A stretch of DNA of 64,000 bases, from NCBI GenBank assembly GCA_030832085.1, contig JAURJU010000030.1:20309-84308 (forward strand), given 5' to 3'. Each line of letters begins with the position of its first letter. The first letter of the stretch is position 1. Positions 1,926-64,000 of the stretch are shown piece by piece. This DNA comes from Chitinophagales bacterium. Its GTDB lineage: Bacteria > Bacteroidota > Bacteroidia > Chitinophagales > Chitinophagaceae. Below the pieces are notes generated by a model. It was not told where the DNA came from and did no database searches. It saw nothing but the letters and a program-made list of their open reading frames with translations. The translations under genes and the position numbers were made by a program.

Positions 1926-2381
1926 ATGACAGGGGAACTGAATGAACAACAAATCAATAATCTGCTTACCAGTCAGGCAATTGGAAGAATTGCATGCTGT
2001 GACGGGAAACACCCCTATATTGTTCCATTGACTTATTCATACGATGGCCAATACATTTACGGACAATCAACAGAAGGCCAAAAATTGGAATTGATGAGAC
2101 AAAATCCAAACGTTTGTTTTCAAGTTGACATGTCAACGAATCTTGACAATTGGCAAAGTGCCGTTGTGTTTGGACAGTTTGAAGAACTAAAAGACGAAAA
2201 GGCAGAAACAGCGAGAGAACATCTCTTTTCAAAAGTTGTTCCGCTGACGACAGCATCTGTGATTCATCAACATGAACACTGGGAAGGAAGCGGCCATGAA
2301 TTGTCTGATCAAACACGCATCAAACCCGTCATGTTTCGGATAAAGGTCAATGAAAAAAGTGGGAGATATGAAAAGCGATAA
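1926..2381 (+). CDS. Pyridoxamine 5'-phosphate oxidase-like FMN-binding protein (NimA-like)
   Basis: GRIAC...PYIVPL.Y...G.KLELMRQNPNVCFQVD...WQSAVVFG.FEEL pattern of split-barrel flavin proteins. Confidence 0.85.
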   Translation: MTGELNEQQINNLLTSQAIGRIACCDGKHPYIVPLTYSYDGQYIYGQSTEGQKLELMRQNPNVCFQVDMSTNLDNWQSAVVFGQFEELKDEKAETAREHLFSKVVPLTTASVIHQHEHWEGSGHELSDQTRIKPVMFRIKVNEKSGRYEKR

Positions 2382-2384
2382 ACG

Positions 2385-3053
2385 ATGGAGGACAAATCGA
2401 TATTCTTGGACAGGGAAGATGCCGGACGGCGCTTGGCCCAAAAAATACTGGACCTTCATTTAAAGGGGGACATTGTAGTGGCAATGCCTAGAGGAGGGGT
2501 ACCTATCGGACTTGCGGTTGCAAAAATACTCCAACTGCCCCTCAAACTATACCTTGTCAGAAAAATTGGACATCCTTCAAACAATGAATACGCTGTGGGG
2601 GCAGTCTCTGAAAGCGACCTGCTGTTGAATGCAGATGAAAATCTGGATAAGGGTTATTTAGAGAAAAAGGTCAAAAAGGAAAGACAAAGGATTGCAGAAA
2701 TGAAGAAAATATTTGGGAGGGCTGCATCAGCTGATGATCTCCATGGGAAAAATGCAATCATCGTTGATGATGGAATTGCAACAGGAAGCTGCATGGAGCT
2801 GGCAATCAGGGAAGTCCGCAAAGCTGGGGCAAGGTCCATAATTGTAGCTGTACCTGTTTGCCCTGCAAATACACAGAAAAAAATACAACCCCTGACAGAC
2901 CACACCATTAGTCTGTTGGAGCCACTTCGTTTTACCGGAATAGGGGCTTACTACCAGGATTTTTCCCAACTGACAGATCAGGAAGTCGTGGAAATGCTAA
3001 CAAAAGTCGCTCAGAACGAGATTTCGGTGGTTGAAAAAACTGCAAGTGGGTGA
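2385..3053 (+). CDS. Type I phosphoribosyltransferase (Rv0571c/Rv2143-like family)
   Basis: DREDAGRRLA, PRGGVP, VRKIGHP, PRPP loop IIVDDGIATG, GAYYQDFSQLTDQEV. Confidence 0.85.
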   Translation: MEDKSIFLDREDAGRRLAQKILDLHLKGDIVVAMPRGGVPIGLAVAKILQLPLKLYLVRKIGHPSNNEYAVGAVSESDLLLNADENLDKGYLEKKVKKERQRIAEMKKIFGRAASADDLHGKNAIIVDDGIATGSCMELAIREVRKAGARSIIVAVPVCPANTQKKIQPLTDHTISLLEPLRFTGIGAYYQDFSQLTDQEVVEMLTKVAQNEISVVEKTASG

Positions 3054-3222
3054 TAGAATTGAGCCAATGGTCATGCATTATCATGAATACAGCCTACAAA
3101 AATGATTCTTTTCTTTTTTATCTAATTAAACAAGATTCCTTACAAATAATAAGTATTTTCACTTACTACTAAGTATTTACGCATATTCGTTTATCGTACC
3201 GAAATGCAATATTTGAACCGAA

Positions 3223-23670: not shown

Positions 23671-24927
23671 ATGGGAGATATTTTTGAAAGACTGATCAAG
23701 AACTACGGGCCGCTTGGTCAACACCGTGAACGGGCACATGGATATTTTGCATTCCCAAAGCTGGAAGGAGAAATTGGCACCAGGATGAATTTCAGGGGGA
23801 AAGAAAAAATTGTCTGGAGCCTGAACAATTACCTGGGCCTGGCCAATCACCCTGAAGTAAGGAAAGCGGATGCAGATGCTGCTGCAGCATATGGACTTGC
23901 TTCACCCATGGGAGCCAGAATGATGAGCGGCAACACCAATCACCATGAGGAGTTGGAGCGGCAACTTGCCGCATTTGAGATGAAAGAGGACTCCATCCTG
24001 CTCAATTTTGGATACCAGGGAATCCTGAGCCTGATTGACACCCTTTGCTCCCGACACGACGTCATTGTATACGATGCCGAATGCCATGCCTGTATCATCG
24101 ATGGCCTGAGGCTGCACCAGGGTCACCGTTTTGTTTTCAAGCACAACGAAATCGATGACTGCGAAAAACAACTTCAGCGGGCTACCGCCTTGATTGAAAA
24201 ACAAAATGCAGGGGGGATTTTGCTCATTACCGAAGGTGTATTTGGGATGGCGGGAGACCAGGGTAAATTGAAGGAGATTGCTGCGCTCAGGCCCAAATAT
24301 TCATTCAGGCTTTTGGTAGACGATGCCCATGGTTTTGGCACCTTGGGGGAAACCGGTGCAGGAGCTGGTGAAGCGCAAGGCGTTCAGGATGAAATCGATC
24401 TCTACTTTTCAACCTTTGCCAAATCAATGGCTTCCATTGGCGCTTTCGTTGCAGGCCCCAAACAAATCATTGATTATGTTCGCTACAACATCAGAAGCCA
24501 GATTTTTGCCAAATCCCTTCCGATGCCATTGGTCATTGGTAACCTCAAAAGACTAGAACTGCTCAAAACACAGCCAGCCCTCAAAGCAAAACTGTGGGAA
24601 AATGCACTGAAACTTCAAAATGGACTGAAAGAAAAGGGGTTCGATATTGGGAAAACGGATTCCGTGGTTACTCCTGTTTACATGAAGGGTGGTGTTGAAG
24701 AGGCTACCCATATGGTTACAGACCTGAGAGAGAATTACAACATTTTTTGCTCTATTGTAGTGTACCCGGTTATTCCCAAAGGGCATATTATTTATCGGTT
24801 GATACCCACTGCAGTTCATACTGACCTGGAAATCCAATTGACACTGACAGCTTTTGAGGAAACCAAAAAGAAGTTGGATGAAGGGCTCTATAAAAATGAG
24901 GCTATTGCACAAATGGCTGAAATTTAA
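23671..24927 (+). CDS. PLP alpha-oxoamine synthase, cysteate acyltransferase (SulA/CapB/Fjoh_2419-like; sulfonolipid biosynthesis)
   Basis: HGYFAFPKLEGEIG, WSLNNYLGLANHPEVRKAD, PMGARMMSG, LLNFGYQG, DDAHG, PLP Lys in TFAKS, second Lys in RSQIFAKSLPMP. From recollection this matches Alistipes SulA far better than BioF, Kbl or SPT. Confidence 0.8.
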   Translation: MGDIFERLIKNYGPLGQHRERAHGYFAFPKLEGEIGTRMNFRGKEKIVWSLNNYLGLANHPEVRKADADAAAAYGLASPMGARMMSGNTNHHEELERQLAAFEMKEDSILLNFGYQGILSLIDTLCSRHDVIVYDAECHACIIDGLRLHQGHRFVFKHNEIDDCEKQLQRATALIEKQNAGGILLITEGVFGMAGDQGKLKEIAALRPKYSFRLLVDDAHGFGTLGETGAGAGEAQGVQDEIDLYFSTFAKSMASIGAFVAGPKQIIDYVRYNIRSQIFAKSLPMPLVIGNLKRLELLKTQPALKAKLWENALKLQNGLKEKGFDIGKTDSVVTPVYMKGGVEEATHMVTDLRENYNIFCSIVVYPVIPKGHIIYRLIPTAVHTDLEIQLTLTAFEETKKKLDEGLYKNEAIAQMAEI

Positions 24928-59078: not shown

Positions 59079-59665
59079 GAAAAATCATTTTTGCGTCAAA
59101 CAACCAACACAAGGCTGATGAAATCAGAAAGGTGATGGGAGAAGGTTTCGATATCATCACCCTTAAAGAGGCGGGCATTGAAATCGATATCCCTGAACCG
59201 CACAACACCCTTGAGGAAAATGCCCGTGAAAAATCAATGGTCATCCACAAAATGACAGGACTTGACTGTTTTTCTGAAGACACTGGACTTGAGGTGGATG
59301 CATTGTTTGGTGCGCCAGGCGTAAGGTCAGCAAGGTATGCGGGTGATCTGGCCTCTGCTGAAGACAACATCCGGAAGTTGCTCATGGAAATGAGGGGAAT
59401 GACCAACAGGGCAGCCCGCTTCAGGACTGTCATTTCACTGGTACTTGATGGGCAGGAGTTTCTTTTTGAGGGCAGCTGCGAAGGAGCCATATGCGAAGTC
59501 GCCTCCGGGACTGATGGTTTCGGTTACGACCCCGTATTCGTGCCGGAGCATCATGACAAAACCTTCGCCTCTTTGGGGCTTGAAGTAAAATCAGCCATCA
59601 GTCACCGTAAAATTGCGGTTGATAAAATGGTCCATTTTTTGAAGCACATTGAAAACAATCATTAG
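59075..59665 (+). CDS. rdgB: RdgB/HAM1 non-canonical purine NTP pyrophosphatase
   Basis: FASNNQHK, LEENA..K, SEDTGL.V.AL.GAPGV.SARY, GFGYDP.F, SHR..A. Confidence 0.93.
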   Translation: MRKIIFASNNQHKADEIRKVMGEGFDIITLKEAGIEIDIPEPHNTLEENAREKSMVIHKMTGLDCFSEDTGLEVDALFGAPGVRSARYAGDLASAEDNIRKLLMEMRGMTNRAARFRTVISLVLDGQEFLFEGSCEGAICEVASGTDGFGYDPVFVPEHHDKTFASLGLEVKSAISHRKIAVDKMVHFLKHIENNH

Positions 59666-59666
59666 C

Positions 59667-60221
59667 ATGTCAAGCAACCATTTGCCCAGCGATCACGACA
59701 TAAGGGAAGGCTGTTTGCTTGGCAATCCAGCCATGCAGAAAATGCTGTACGACAGGCATGCACCAAAAATGTATGGAATTTGCCTTCGCTACGCAGCGAA
59801 CAGTGAGGATGCAAGGGATATTCTTCAGGATGGATTCATAAAGGTATTCAGCAACCTGGGAAAATTCATGGGGACTGGTTCTTTTGAAGGATGGATGAGA
59901 AGAATATTTGTCAACACTGCCATTGAGCATTACAGGAAGAAAAACAACCTGTTTGCGATCAGTGAACACCAGGAGGAGAACATTGCAGATAAAGAAGTTT
60001 CTGCATTGGACGAACTGGAGGCAGGTGACATTATCAAGTTGATCAGCGAACTTCCCAACGGGTACAGGACCGTATTCAATCTTTTTGCTGTTGAAGGTTA
60101 CACCCACAAGGAGATTGCCGAAATGATGAACATCAGTGAAGGAACGAGCAAGTCACAATATGCGAGGGCCAAGGCCTGGCTGCAGGAAAAAATTGGCAAG
60201 AGAAACCTTGATAAAAACTGA
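59667..60221 (+). CDS. ECF RNA polymerase sigma factor
   Basis: DILQDGFIKVF, SFEGWMRRI.VNTAI, LP.GYRTVFNL, HKEIA..MNISEGTSKSQ..RAK. Confidence 0.92.
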   Translation: MSSNHLPSDHDIREGCLLGNPAMQKMLYDRHAPKMYGICLRYAANSEDARDILQDGFIKVFSNLGKFMGTGSFEGWMRRIFVNTAIEHYRKKNNLFAISEHQEENIADKEVSALDELEAGDIIKLISELPNGYRTVFNLFAVEGYTHKEIAEMMNISEGTSKSQYARAKAWLQEKIGKRNLDKN

Positions 60222-60224
60222 TCC

Positions 60225-60617
60225 ATGGAATGGAAGAACAAAATAAACCAATTTGAACCGGACCCGCCGCCGTTGGCCTGGAAAACAATTGAAAATGAAC
60301 TCCACCTGGATGAAGGCCGCTTGTACAATTATGCAGCGTGCCCCCCTGAAGGCGTCTGGGATGAAATTTCAGCGCATCTCTTACCGATTGGTCCCCAAAA
60401 AACCAGTGTATTTCGAGGGGGTTGGCATCTGCTTCGCTATGCTGCCATGGTTGCATTTCTGGTGTTGATGGGTACAACAATCCTCAACAAGCCATTCAGG
60501 AATGCCTTGTTTGAAACGGTTCAGGGTCCTGGCATGAAGGCATCGCTGAATGATACCCCACATGCGGTGAAAAACGATACCAGTACCAATAAAAAACACC
60601 ACTCCCATTTGCCCTGA
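60225..60617 (+). CDS. Putative short membrane anti-sigma factor
   Basis: Two PP..xW..I...L motifs, one TM helix (YAAMVAFLVLMGTTIL), short tail; directly after the ECF sigma gene. Confidence 0.5.
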   Translation: MEWKNKINQFEPDPPPLAWKTIENELHLDEGRLYNYAACPPEGVWDEISAHLLPIGPQKTSVFRGGWHLLRYAAMVAFLVLMGTTILNKPFRNALFETVQGPGMKASLNDTPHAVKNDTSTNKKHHSHLP

Positions 60618-60626
60618 TTCCATCAC

Positions 60627-61100
60627 ATGAGAAACAGAAAAATTCAAATACCGTCTCCGTTTTGCTTTAGCACAAACCTTATTGTCCAGGTGTCAGACAT
60701 CAACTATGGAGGACATGTGGGCAACGACCGTTATCTTCTCTTTGCGCAGGAAACAAGGATGCGGTTTCTAGAAAGCATCGGATGCTCCGAGATGCACTTC
60801 GGGCCATATGGCCTTGTTCTTACTGAAGCGCATGTTGAATATTTTCATGAACTTTTCCGAGGAAATGCCATCAAGATTTCGATGGCGGTTGGGCACCCAT
60901 CCAGGGCCTCTTTTGACTGCTTCTATGCAATCAAAACAGTGAAAAATGAAACCGAAATTGAATCAGCTGTCATCAAAACAAGTATGGTCTGCTTTGATTA
61001 CAAGATGAGGAAAGTAAGGTCGATCCCTGATGACCTGAAGGAGATTCTTGAAGATTGCGCCAATGGCAAGAGCAGGTTACCTGTTCCAAATGTCCCATGA
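60627..61100 (+). CDS. 4HBT-like thioesterase
   Basis: VQVSDINYGGHVGND.Y...QE.R, FDYKMRKV. Confidence 0.85.
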   Translation: MRNRKIQIPSPFCFSTNLIVQVSDINYGGHVGNDRYLLFAQETRMRFLESIGCSEMHFGPYGLVLTEAHVEYFHELFRGNAIKISMAVGHPSRASFDCFYAIKTVKNETEIESAVIKTSMVCFDYKMRKVRSIPDDLKEILEDCANGKSRLPVPNVP

Positions 61101-61808
61101 TGCTTCTGCCTGTATCACAAGCATGTCGGCCCCGTTCTCCACTGCAGCGCCTCTCAAAGCACCCTCCTGTAAGAATCGGGTACGATGGGGGTTGTAGACC
61201 AAGTCAAAAAGATAGTGATTGGGCCCTATGCAATCATAAGGAATTGCAGGAGCGCTTTCAAGATCGGGATGCATGCCCAAAGGGGTGGTATTGATTAAAA
61301 GTGTATGCGTTTCAAGCACTTGCCTGTCCACATCGGTATAGGAAATCATCCCCTCCCCAGGCGTTCGACTGACCTGAACAAAAGGTATTTTCAATTCCTT
61401 CAGCACATAAAGAACAGCTTTTGCTGACCCTCCCGAGCCAAACACCAAGGCACGCTGGTGATGGGCGTTCAATTTGGGCAAAAGAGACCTGGAAAAGCCT
61501 ATGACATCCGTATTGTGCCCGATGAGGAGGCCCTGGTCAATCTTGATACAGTTGCAAGCCCCAATTTCACTTACTACCGGAGACATCTCATCCAGATAAG
61601 CCAAAACCTTTTCTTTGTAGGGTATGGTAACATTCAATCCTGCAAGCCCAGGAGTGGACTCCAACAAAGCTTCAATTTGATCAATCTGCTCCAATGGGTA
61701 TAGCGCATAAGCATTCCCTGAAATTTTTTCTCGCTCAAACTTTTCAGAAAAATATTTTTTCGAAAATGAATGACCCAAAGGATACCCAATAAGCCCGAAC
61801 TGCCTCAT
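61077..61808 (-). CDS. aroE: Shikimate dehydrogenase
   Basis: LIGYPLGHSFS, GLNVTIPYK, IGACNC, NTDVIGF, GSGGSA, INTTPLGM, DLVYNP. Start set at ATG 61808. Confidence 0.92.
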   Translation of the reverse strand: MRQFGLIGYPLGHSFSKKYFSEKFEREKISGNAYALYPLEQIDQIEALLESTPGLAGLNVTIPYKEKVLAYLDEMSPVVSEIGACNCIKIDQGLLIGHNTDVIGFSRSLLPKLNAHHQRALVFGSGGSAKAVLYVLKELKIPFVQVSRTPGEGMISYTDVDRQVLETHTLLINTTPLGMHPDLESAPAIPYDCIGPNHYLFDLVYNPHRTRFLQEGALRGAAVENGADMLVIQAEASWDIWNR

Positions 61809-61815
61809 TTTAGTC

Positions 61816-62577
61816 CTATTTATCAAGGAACAATTCAAAAGTATCCCCCCTCAGGCCAACCCGCATGGCTTCCAGAGCGATGATTTCATTGGGAGCAATA
61901 TTTCCCAGGTTTACATTCGTGCCCAGAAGTTCGATGAAGTAAAGTTGTTGCGCTTTTTGGGGTGCTTCCCACAAAATTTTTTCTCCAGGTATTTGTGTAA
62001 GAATTTCCTGAACCAGGCCTTCCCTCACTTCACCACTGCCCCGGTAAATTCCAACATTGCCCGCCTCCCTTGCTTCTGCGATCACATATGTTGCACCCGC
62101 CTTCAATTCTGCACTCATCAGCTCAATCCATTTGTAGGGAGGGATGATATGGGCTGCGTCCTTGCTTCCAACTTCACTCAAAACCGTTCCTATTGCACTC
62201 AACTTTTCAATATACCCGCATTTTTCAGTATGTGGAATGGTGATGGATCCGTCACTGACTTCCATGTAAGAAATTCCATAATCCTTGCAAAGGCTGATAT
62301 AATCATTGAACTGGTTTCTTATCAAAAAAGCTTCCATGAGGGTGCCGCCAAAATAAACAGGAATACCTGCAGACTGGTACAATTCAATTTTCTCGCGAAG
62401 CTTTGGTGTTACGTAAGCAGTTCCAAAGCCCAACTTGACCATGTCAACATGGGGAACTGCATTTTCAATGAATTGTTTTGACTGGTCCAGGGTAAGCCCC
62501 TTGTCCATGACCATTGTTATCCCCTCTTTTCTTGGCTTTGAAAACCGATCCGGCATTTGTGACAAGCTAAAATTCAT
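61816..62577 (-). CDS. comA: Phosphosulfolactate synthase (ComA family)
   Basis: KPRKEGITMVMDKGL, VKLGFGT, GGTLME, EVSDG, SEVGSK, AEAREAG, WEAP.K.QQ, NLGNI, E..R.GLRGDT. Confidence 0.9.
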   Translation of the reverse strand: MNFSLSQMPDRFSKPRKEGITMVMDKGLTLDQSKQFIENAVPHVDMVKLGFGTAYVTPKLREKIELYQSAGIPVYFGGTLMEAFLIRNQFNDYISLCKDYGISYMEVSDGSITIPHTEKCGYIEKLSAIGTVLSEVGSKDAAHIIPPYKWIELMSAELKAGATYVIAEAREAGNVGIYRGSGEVREGLVQEILTQIPGEKILWEAPQKAQQLYFIELLGTNVNLGNIAPNEIIALEAMRVGLRGDTFELFLDK

Positions 62578-62595
62578 CGTCGTTCAATATTTTGA

Positions 62596-62625
62596 CAAAA
62601 ATAAGAAACAGGCAGGTAAGTGCAA
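62596..62625 (-). promoter_or_regulatory. Complete sigma-70 promoter for comA-aroE
   Basis: TTG (62623-25), 19 nt spacer, TATTTTTG (62596-62603). Confidence 0.65.
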
Positions 62626-62646: not shown

Positions 62647-63999
62647 TCAGATTCGCTTCCTTCGCTTGTTTTTCAAGATCAGCTCTACCACCTGAGGGAA
62701 TTTCACGGAAGAAGGGAAAAGCTTCAGGAACTTCTTGAGCAACCGTGGATAGGCTTCAATTGAAGATTCCAGCAGTTCAAGTCCGGCTTTGACCTTGCCG
62801 ATAGACAACATCACTGCACTTTCATAATACTTGAACATGGGCTTGTCTCCCGCCTTGGCCCTTGCCATTTCCACATGCTTTTGGGCCTCCTTGAACTGAT
62901 CGCTCAAGAACAATGTAGAAATCAACGCTTCCCACGATTTTATGTTTTTAGGCCTGGCTTGTACAGCTGCAATAAAATAGTGAACCGCTTCCTTTGGTTT
63001 CCCCACCTTTACCAGGCACTCACCCATGATCAGGTTGAAATCGGGATCAAGCCGCTTGATGTGCAGGGCAGTGTCAAGGTACCTGATGGCCTGTGCATGT
63101 TTGGACTCTTTGATATAGGTCCCTGCAACCTTCAGGTATATTTTTGCATCGTCGGGATTAAGGTGAGAGGCTTTTCTGTAATAATACCTGGCCTGTCCGT
63201 AGTTTTTTATTTTCTCATAGCAATAGCCAATGGCCTGGTAAATCAGGTCCTCAGGCCTTGCCAATTCTATGACTTTCTCAAGGCTTTCTATGGCTTCTTT
63301 ATAGCGGTGAAGGCGCATCATGGCGTCTGCCATGTTGCGGTAGGCGAAGTCAAACTTTTCGTTTATGGCAATGGCGTACTGATAAGCATCAATTGATTTT
63401 TCAAAAAGCCGCAATCCTTGATATGCCGCTGCCAAGTTGAACCAGGCAAGGTCATTGTATGGAAATTGCTCAATGATTTTCAGGTGAAGCCGAATGCTCT
63501 CTTCACTTCTTCCTGTAAAATCAGTCCAAAAACAGATCTTGTATAAAGCCTCCTCGTTGTTGGGGTCATATTCAAGAACCAGCTTCAAACAATCAAATAT
63601 CTTTTCAAAGGCCTCATAGTCGTCATATACATCGGCCAGTTCAAAAAGCAACTCAATCCGTTCATACCCCTCAAATTGGTGAATGGCATCCTCTAGCAAC
63701 GCTACAGCACGGTCTTGCATGTCCAAGGCCAAATAGGCATCGGTCCTCAAGATGCAGATGTCCATGTCATTGCGGTCAAGTATTTCAGCCTTGTCAAGAA
63801 GGGATAAGGCCTTTTTGTACTGCCTGCTGGCAATCAGAAGGTCTGCCTTTTTTACCAATAAAACAGAGGAATAAGGAAATTGAAGGATCCCCATTTCCGC
63901 AGCCTCCAGCGCCTTGGGGAGTGCATTTTGATCATCAAAATGATCAATAATGCGCTCAAAAGATTCTTCACTGAGAAAACCACTGCCCCTTCCGGCACG
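62647..63999 (-). CDS. Tetratricopeptide repeat protein (5' end beyond the window)
   Basis: Multiple TPR motifs (AWFNLAAAY, AYRNMADA, YQAIGYCY). The frame stays open upstream of ATG 63894 to the window edge (RAGRGSGFLSEESFERIIDHFDD...). Confidence 0.88.
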   Translation of the reverse strand, partial: RAGRGSGFLSEESFERIIDHFDDQNALPKALEAAEMGILQFPYSSVLLVKKADLLIASRQYKKALSLLDKAEILDRNDMDICILRTDAYLALDMQDRAVALLEDAIHQFEGYERIELLFELADVYDDYEAFEKIFDCLKLVLEYDPNNEEALYKICFWTDFTGRSEESIRLHLKIIEQFPYNDLAWFNLAAAYQGLRLFEKSIDAYQYAIAINEKFDFAYRNMADAMMRLHRYKEAIESLEKVIELARPEDLIYQAIGYCYEKIKNYGQARYYYRKASHLNPDDAKIYLKVAGTYIKESKHAQAIRYLDTALHIKRLDPDFNLIMGECLVKVGKPKEAVHYFIAAVQARPKNIKSWEALISTLFLSDQFKEAQKHVEMARAKAGDKPMFKYYESAVMLSIGKVKAGLELLESSIEAYPRLLKKFLKLFPSSVKFPQVVELILKNKRRKRI

Positions 64000-64000
64000 C

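Follow-up and report, generated by a model that had tools for sequence, protein, structure and literature searches.

Sulfonolipids take part in gliding motility, trigger or inhibit multicellularity in choanoflagellates (the rosette-inducing factors, RIFs, and inhibitors of rosettes, IORs, of Algoriphagus) and, in the gut, modulate signalling through TLR4. For the cysteate of their head group, the literature consulted names only two sources, CapA and an archaeal-type cysteate synthase (PMC10191378, PMC13692747); CapA belongs to the CapA-CapB-CapC pathway to capnine described by Liu et al. 2022 (as cited in PMC10191378, PMC13692747). The reactions of ComA, ComB and ComC are known in methanogens, and the transamination between cysteate and sulfopyruvate is reversible (PMC9457059, PMC11193023). 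Here we analyse a stretch of 64,000 nucleotides (the window, meaning this whole stretch) from contig JAURJU010000030.1 of the Chitinophagales bacterium assembly GCA_030832085.1, which carries both a comA gene and a capB/sulA gene. A reading of this DNA from its letters only, hereafter the sequence-only reading, had proposed that ComA may supply cysteate for capnine in lineages lacking CapA. The comparative evidence that we have gathered, genome searches and a phyletic profile, supports this proposal, and we consider it fairly probable that comA opens a pathway from phosphoenolpyruvate (PEP) to cysteate whose genes are dispersed and whose product goes into sulfonolipids (capnine), both in this bacterium and across most families of the class. 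New here are the finding of comB and comC elsewhere in the genome and the coupling of these genes to CapB across genomes; no published link of ComA or sulfolactate to sulfonolipids was found in the full-text literature, although a remark in subscription papers is possible.

ComA, CapB and the cysteate-forming step

The genes that bear on the proposal are the following (contigs, genomes, loci and families carry our own labels, beginning with C, G, L and f).

61816..62577, minus strand: comA, phosphosulfolactate synthase homologue, 253 amino acids (aa), an uninterrupted open reading frame with ATG start and TAG stop (61816-61818)
23671..24927, plus strand: capB/sulA, orthologue of cysteate-C-fatty acyltransferase (CFAT), 418 aa, the proposed consumer of cysteate
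C36:40334-41125: comB, with a PF04029 match of 209.6 bits (gathering score 26.4) at C36:40358-41026
C94:18513-19604: ComC-type Ldh_2 dehydrogenase, with a PF02615 match of 407.6 bits
C48:176788-177807: CBS/CysK-like protein, 327 aa, the only CBS/CysK homologue in the genome

The comA product matches PF02679 (ComA) with 299.3 bits (gathering score 25.2) over model positions 2-243 of 243, so that the gene is an intact member of the ComA family, as the sequence-only reading had it, with a predicted PEP-sulfite activity. Against TIGR03849 (arch_ComA) it scores 262.5 bits and misses the cut-off of 280, a shortfall which is small and expected for a bacterial ComA because this model was built on archaeal sequences. 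Comparison with solved ComA structures gave 179.5 bits for Bacillus subtilis YitD (1u83) and 148.5 bits for the Methanocaldococcus jannaschii enzyme (1qwg). Residue K139 aligns with K137 of 1qwg in the SEVGSK/TEVGKK block and does not vary among 12 aligned Bacteroidota ComA sequences; the M. jannaschii K137 was reportedly proposed by Wise and co-workers in 2003 as the general acid of ComA. Identity to ComA of other Bacteroidota families ranges from 53 to 71%, with 83 invariant columns. A genome search found comA in single copy (2.89-Mb assembly, 98.4% complete), and among the best 80 of 584 related loci the closest in named genomes all belong to Chitinophagaceae, mostly metagenome-assembled genomes from lake and soil, with a top identity of 97%, so that the organism can be taken as a freshwater member of this family. 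A second, divergent copy of ComA was seen in five genomes of f31 and in G248 of f49, families in which the CapB-like protein is only about 50% identical to that of the window.

The gene at 23671-24927, which had been called SulA/CapB-like, can be regarded from its sequence as a genuine CFAT orthologue. Its product scores 592 bits to Alistipes finegoldii SulA (7u7h) and 577 bits to Capnocytophaga ochracea CFAT (28eh) as compared to 223 bits for the best serine palmitoyltransferase (SPT), and it is nearer to the characterised CFATs than to SPT, KBL or BioF. The first-shell residues of the C. ochracea CFAT complex with pyridoxal phosphate (PLP)-cysteate have been described (PMC13692747), and N52, G81, A82, F113, G114, Y115, H139, C141, D216, H219, T247, K250, F278 and K280 of this shell are all kept in the window protein, the sole change being the conservative replacement of M277 by I.

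No match to the archaeal-type cysteate synthase model (TIGR03844) was obtained in the genome at E <= 0.001, and only three of 401 sampled genomes of the phylum exceed its cut-off. TIGR03844 had also been tried as a proxy for CapA and was rejected as the wrong family, CapA being CBS-like, and the scan of the same 401 genomes was repeated with NF053679 (CysteaSynCapA). Five PALP-fold proteins are encoded in the genome, namely the CBS/CysK-like protein, TrpB, two ThrC and one ACC-deaminase-like protein. The two threonine synthase genes lie at C4:21645-22994 and C108:573-1886; the 9-kb contig C108 has a tetranucleotide correlation of 0.966 against a median of 0.987 and could be a strain variant or a binning contaminant, the reported contamination of the assembly being 4.8%. 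The CBS/CysK-like protein reaches 430.6 bits with NF053679 (cut-off 600) and 419.8 bits with cystathionine beta-synthase, and its gene on C48 is not adjacent to capB, which is on C110.

The NF053679 cut-off is passed by just 28 of the 401 genomes (616-663 bits), all from f5. The CapB of G055, one genome of this family, reaches 716 bits against C. ochracea CFAT, and on that ground we take f5 to be Flavobacteriaceae. Two to three hits at E <= 1e-60 are found in 24 of these CapA genomes and one hit in four, and the extra hits with listed scores are CBS-like paralogues of about 455-485 bits. In the maximum-likelihood tree, one clade (support 99/96) unites the f5 CapAs, the capB-adjacent genes of f7 and that of G395, and a housekeeping clade (100/100) holds the protein of the window genome together with those of f1, f6, f12 and f31 and the second f5 paralogues. 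By score and by tree placement the genome holds a relative of CapA and not a CapA orthologue, which agrees with the supposed lack of capA. Since all 22 sampled genomes of the window's family give the same single hit of about 430-485 bits, this absence is not an assembly gap.

The sequence-only reading had further supposed that a phosphatase and a dehydrogenase were recruited from elsewhere. We find instead the canonical ComB family, for which the genome had been suggested as a place to look, and a ComC-type enzyme. The ComB protein stays below the cut-offs of all the NCBIfam equivalogs, of which NF002054 scores highest (158.9 of 330 bits) and NF002057 comes nearest to its cut-off (154.1 of 235 bits). 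Its gene follows gcvT on the same strand (C36:40334-42189), the two overlapping here and lying 4 nt apart in G457 of family f74 (L159:6623-8489); the pair is therefore conserved across families. The ComC-type protein has its best NCBIfam match in NF040650, L-sulfolactate dehydrogenase (251.7 bits, cut-off 500), and scores 211 bits to M. jannaschii ComC (2x06) and 255 bits to 1v9n. It is a putative sulfolactate dehydrogenase of the Ldh_2 family, in which sequence does not fix the substrate, and its gene precedes that of aspartate kinase. The contigs of comA and capB, comB, comC and the CBS-like gene are alike in composition (GC 44-45%, tetranucleotide r at least 0.99).

Taken in order, ComA would condense sulfite with PEP to (2R)-phosphosulfolactate, ComB would remove the phosphate to give sulfolactate, and the ComC-type enzyme would oxidise (R)-sulfolactate to 3-sulfopyruvate. 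Sulfopyruvate would then be converted to L-cysteate by a general aspartate-type aminotransferase, and the L-cysteate would pass to CapB. Ordinary aspartate-type aminotransferases are known to interconvert cysteate and sulfopyruvate in coenzyme M (CoM) synthesis of Methanosarcina and in bacterial cysteate degradation (PMC9457059, PMC11193023), and one of this kind may serve here.

Distribution across the class and competing explanations

Two samples of genomes were compared. Sample 1 consisted of those 100 genomes in the 401-genome draw from the phylum that belong to the window's class; sample 2 added 66 further genomes from 46 families, 45 of these not present in sample 1. CapB was called in the phylum scan at E <= 1e-80. 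In sample 1, ComA and CapB occur together in 48 genomes, ComA never without CapB, CapB without ComA in 39 and neither in 13; the corresponding counts in sample 2 are 59, 1, 0 and 6. Over both samples, CapB is present in 107 of the 108 genomes of the class that carry ComA. ComB accompanies ComA in 108 of 108 genomes as compared to 2 of the 52 tested genomes lacking ComA (2/46 in sample 1, 0/6 in sample 2). An Ldh_2 protein of 390-420 bits was found in 37 of 43 tested ComA genomes of sample 1, and 3 of 37 genomes without ComA have one of a lower-scoring subfamily (310-343 bits).

The presence of ComA is mirrored by the absence of other cysteate synthases. No genome combines ComA with a CapA above the cut-off, all 28 CapA genomes being devoid of ComA. 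The mutual exclusivity of comA and capA among CapB carriers, named by the sequence-only reading as the pattern that would favour its proposal, is thus what the profile displays: ComA is present in 48 of the 87 such carriers in sample 1, and in not one of those 48 is there a CapA above the cut-off. Among the 39 CapB carriers without ComA, 28 have a CapA above the cut-off, often adjacent to capB (for example G279, G091, G163, G219 and G055). Three genomes of f7 with CapB and no ComA have a 545-bit gene of the CapA clade beside capB, G395 has one 1 kb from capB, G067 has a 508-bit CapA-like gene beside capB and G351 a paralogue of the same small clade. G243 (f15) carries CapB, the archaeal-type cysteate synthase (491.9 bits) and ComB, and lacks ComA and Ldh_2; it may stand between the two routes or mix them.

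Losses follow the same lines. G227 of f6 lacks ComA, ComB, Ldh_2 and CapB and keeps the CBS-like gene, and six other f6 genomes have all four. The whole set is missing from the large free-living genomes of f3, f4, f92 and f102. Within the window's order alone, f1 carries ComABC with CapB, a CapA-like gene accompanies CapB in some f2 genomes, and f3 and f4 have none of these. In G323, a genome of the window's family, capB and a comC-like gene are divergent neighbours 155 bp apart (L150, G323:C22:126000-129600; open reading frames 601-1848 on the minus and 2004-3089 on the plus strand); no other direct physical link between the modules was seen. A route from PEP would explain why ComA, ComB and ComC are lost where another cysteate synthase arrives or where CapB goes, and it seems the simplest source of cysteate for the 107 CapB-carrying genomes.

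Several observations weigh against this proposal. No phosphatase, dehydrogenase or aminotransferase partner stands beside comA in any of 110 loci, and no gene cluster joins comA to comB, comC or capB in this genome. A strict class-I motif retrieved one aminotransferase candidate (C4:3117-4382), which has no tie to the pathway. Signatures of Sat, CysC, CysD, CysN, CysH and sulfite reductase were not found in motif scans that are weak and had no positive control, and which thus point to no sulfite donor for ComA; the only sulfur-related find of these scans, apart from the one CBS/CysK-like gene, was a single-domain rhodanese (C48:105081-105398). It may be that the organism relies on sulfur in reduced or organic form, and the problem of sulfite supply would hold equally for a CapA route. 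Ldh_2 is missing from six genomes with ComA (f10, f11, f17 and G083). Four f2 genomes of the window's order (G071, G143, G327 and G331) have CapB and neither ComA nor ComB; three of them, placed in the tree, have no CapA-type paralogue, G071 has a second CBS-like hit outside the tree, and G143, G327 and G331 have a lower-scoring Ldh_2. Fisher tests on the profile gave p values from 1e-4 to 1e-24 on counts that ignore shared ancestry. Since these tests take no account of phylogeny, we base the argument on replacements and co-losses that recur independently, and not on the p values.

It is also possible, though we judge it unlikely, that ComABC make sulfolactate or sulfopyruvate for another end use, such as a sulfonate solute (the part that sulfolactate plays in Bacillus spores) or other metabolite, the link to CapB reflecting shared ancestry and lifestyle. 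G437 has ComA and ComB without CapB, and in other classes of the phylum (f21, f50, f44, f36 and f57) ComA occurs with no CapB hit at E <= 1e-80; ComA is also present in Bacillus subtilis and Corynebacterium, which served as search controls. ComA therefore has other uses too, and these cases count against the PEP-to-cysteate route as well as for the alternative, as does the want of an operon joining comA to capB. However, such an end use fits poorly with the near-constant company of CapB within the class and with the disappearance of ComABC wherever CapA or the archaeal-type synthase appears or CapB is lost, G227 and families f3, f4, f92 and f102 included, and it would leave the CapB of 107 genomes without a source of cysteate.

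Somewhat less likely again is that the resident CBS/CysK-like PLP enzyme is itself the cysteate synthase, acting on O-phosphoserine or O-acetylserine with sulfite, and that ComABC have nothing to do with lipids. One such protein, scoring 430-485 bits on the CapA model, is kept in every ComA genome, where a side activity as cysteate synthase would be possible and would tell against the need for ComA; according to the tree, CapA arose inside this CBS-like family, and it is the only enzyme of the kind in those four f2 genomes that carry CapB without ComA or a CapA-type paralogue. Nevertheless, its clade coexists with true CapA in Flavobacteriaceae, and the gene is retained where CapB has been lost (G227, f3, f4), so that its presence is no guide to sulfonolipid capacity. 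Unlike the gene for CapA, it does not lie beside capB, and as the sole CysK/CBS homologue of the genome it is probably needed for cysteine metabolism.

That the genes serve CoM biosynthesis, or the catabolism of cysteate or sulfolactate, is very improbable: ComA, ComB and ComC do form the first three steps of the PEP-dependent CoM pathway of methanogens (PMC9457059), and ComC-type enzymes and cysteate aminotransferases do act in cysteate degradation (PMC11193023), but a crude motif test found no ComDE-like protein among the thiamine-diphosphate (TPP)-motif open reading frames of the genome (only DXS, transketolase, acetolactate synthase, PDH E1 and OFOR-type proteins), no credible Xcb homologue was detected (best XcbE match 53.8 bits against a cut-off of 450), and ComA with the ComB phosphatase is biosynthetic and has no role in known degradative routes.

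We return to the PEP-based route as the preferred account of comA. ComA is present in 60 of the 66 genomes of sample 2, which are spread over 46 families, and it can be suggested, as an evenly balanced proposition, that ComABC with a transaminase form the ancestral and most widespread cysteate supply for sulfonolipids in the class Bacteroidia, with CapA and the archaeal-type synthase as later replacements. The CBS-derived CapA would then have arrived in Flavobacteriaceae and Weeksellaceae and the archaeal-type synthase in Alistipes-like lineages, and the TPR protein that is often adjacent to ComA may be a partner or regulator.

The profile suggests that most environmental Bacteroidia use neither of the two named cysteate sources and rely on a PEP route instead. 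If so, most producers would escape gene surveys that make a cysteate synthase a condition of sulfonolipid capacity. PEP and not serine would provide the head-group carbon, and the synthesis of an outer-membrane lipid would be tied to the availability of sulfite. The widely annotated 'orphan' bacterial homologues of comA, comB and comC would also gain a physiological role.

Neighbourhood and transcription of comA

The features which surround comA in the window are listed below.

62596..62625, minus strand: promoter-like motif TTG-N19-TAttTTTG of the Bacteroidetes -33/-7 pattern, in the 69-nt spacer between the TPR gene and comA
61077..61808, minus strand: aroE-like shikimate dehydrogenase gene, true ATG at 61808, 7 nt after the comA stop
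62647..64000, minus strand: gene for a TPR-repeat protein upstream of comA, running out of the window end (stop-to-stop frame of 485 aa in the contig)

It had been proposed that comA has its own consensus promoter. A motif of the expected pattern is indeed present and stops 18 nt ahead of the comA ATG; as a pattern, it is in modest excess only, with four occurrences across the window where 1.26 would be expected, a count reached in 6 of 100 shuffles, and the evidence for promoter function is accordingly modest. The picture of an isolated gene does not hold, since the TPR gene ends 69 nt upstream and the aroE start codon follows the comA stop after 7 nt. The comA/aroE junction is spanned by a 202-nt contig from a freshwater metatranscriptome (61752-61953, at least 99% identity), which suggests that the two genes are probably co-transcribed in nature, although the depth is low and carry-over of DNA is possible. 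In the freshwater metatranscriptome run X9, two short contigs at least 99% identical to the window cover the 3' end of comA and the 5' end of aroE, and in a 2018 run labelled 'marine metagenome' (X1) the whole 61752-61953 stretch is present at a depth of 11.6.

A conserved block of the order TPR-comA-(DUF368)-aroE is found in f1, f6, f12 and f14 among the 110 comA loci, with aroE at most 1.5 kb downstream of comA in f1, f6 and f12. The TPR product matches many TPR families of Pfam. Homologues of about 470 aa with 24-30% identity to the window copy lie directly upstream of comA in f6, f12 and f14, a TPR gene is upstream in 92 of the 110 loci overall, and none stands beside comA in f31 and f49. 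In these two families, from another class of the phylum (L005, L014, L026), comA has malQ on one side and a short glgA-like gene on the other, after which comes a DUF4270-like gene. The TPR protein could be a partner of ComA or a mere relic of old synteny. The neighbourhood of comA as a whole appears to be a housekeeping block and gives no pathway information.

The aroE-like product scores 61 bits with PF08501 and 167.7 bits with TIGR00507, under the cut-off of 200.2. We considered whether it could be a hidden sulfolactate dehydrogenase and rejected this: the gene is of the aroE type usual in Bacteroidota, it occupies a conserved housekeeping position, and the genome encodes a ComC-type enzyme at another place. 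A thioesterase gene of the 4HBT_2 family (60627-61100) converges on aroE and lies beside the block in 53 of the 110 loci. It comes after the genes for an ECF-type sigma factor (59649-60221) and a probable anti-sigma partner (60225-60617).

Comparison with known systems

YitD and YitC of Bacillus subtilis are a bacterial ComA and ComB pair outside methanogenesis, and YitD is the closest solved relative of the window ComA. There the end product is sulfolactate itself, found in the spore, and the bacterium has no CapB and no sulfonolipid.

In the CoM pathway of Methanocaldococcus jannaschii and other class I methanogens (ComA-ComB-ComC-ComDE), the same three families act in the same order to bring PEP and sulfite to sulfopyruvate (PMC9457059). 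The present system is in comparison bacterial and aerobic, lacks ComDE as far as the TPP-motif scan goes, and has its genes spread over three contigs. Its proteins miss all the archaeal equivalog cut-offs (ComA 262.5/280, ComC 251.7/500, ComB 154.1/235 with NF002057), and for its sulfopyruvate, which methanogens decarboxylate, we propose transamination to cysteate. XcbABCDE of Xanthobacter autotrophicus (PMC9457059) also opens with a ComA homologue, XcbB; however, it continues by phosphate elimination (XcbC), where ComB and ComC would act here.

The CapA-CapB-CapC pathway of Capnocytophaga ochracea and Ornithobacterium shares the committed step, with about 64% identity between the window CapB and C. 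ochracea CFAT. CapA makes cysteate in one PLP-dependent step from O-phosphoserine and sulfite, whereas here, with no CapA orthologue, a four-step route from PEP is proposed. In Alistipes and Odoribacter, SulA works with the archaeal-type cysteate synthase (PMC9304779, PMC10191378). The latter (TIGR03844) was not found in the window's genome, yet SulA is the closest solved relative of the window CapB, and that pathway provides a precedent for the non-orthologous replacement of the cysteate-forming step.

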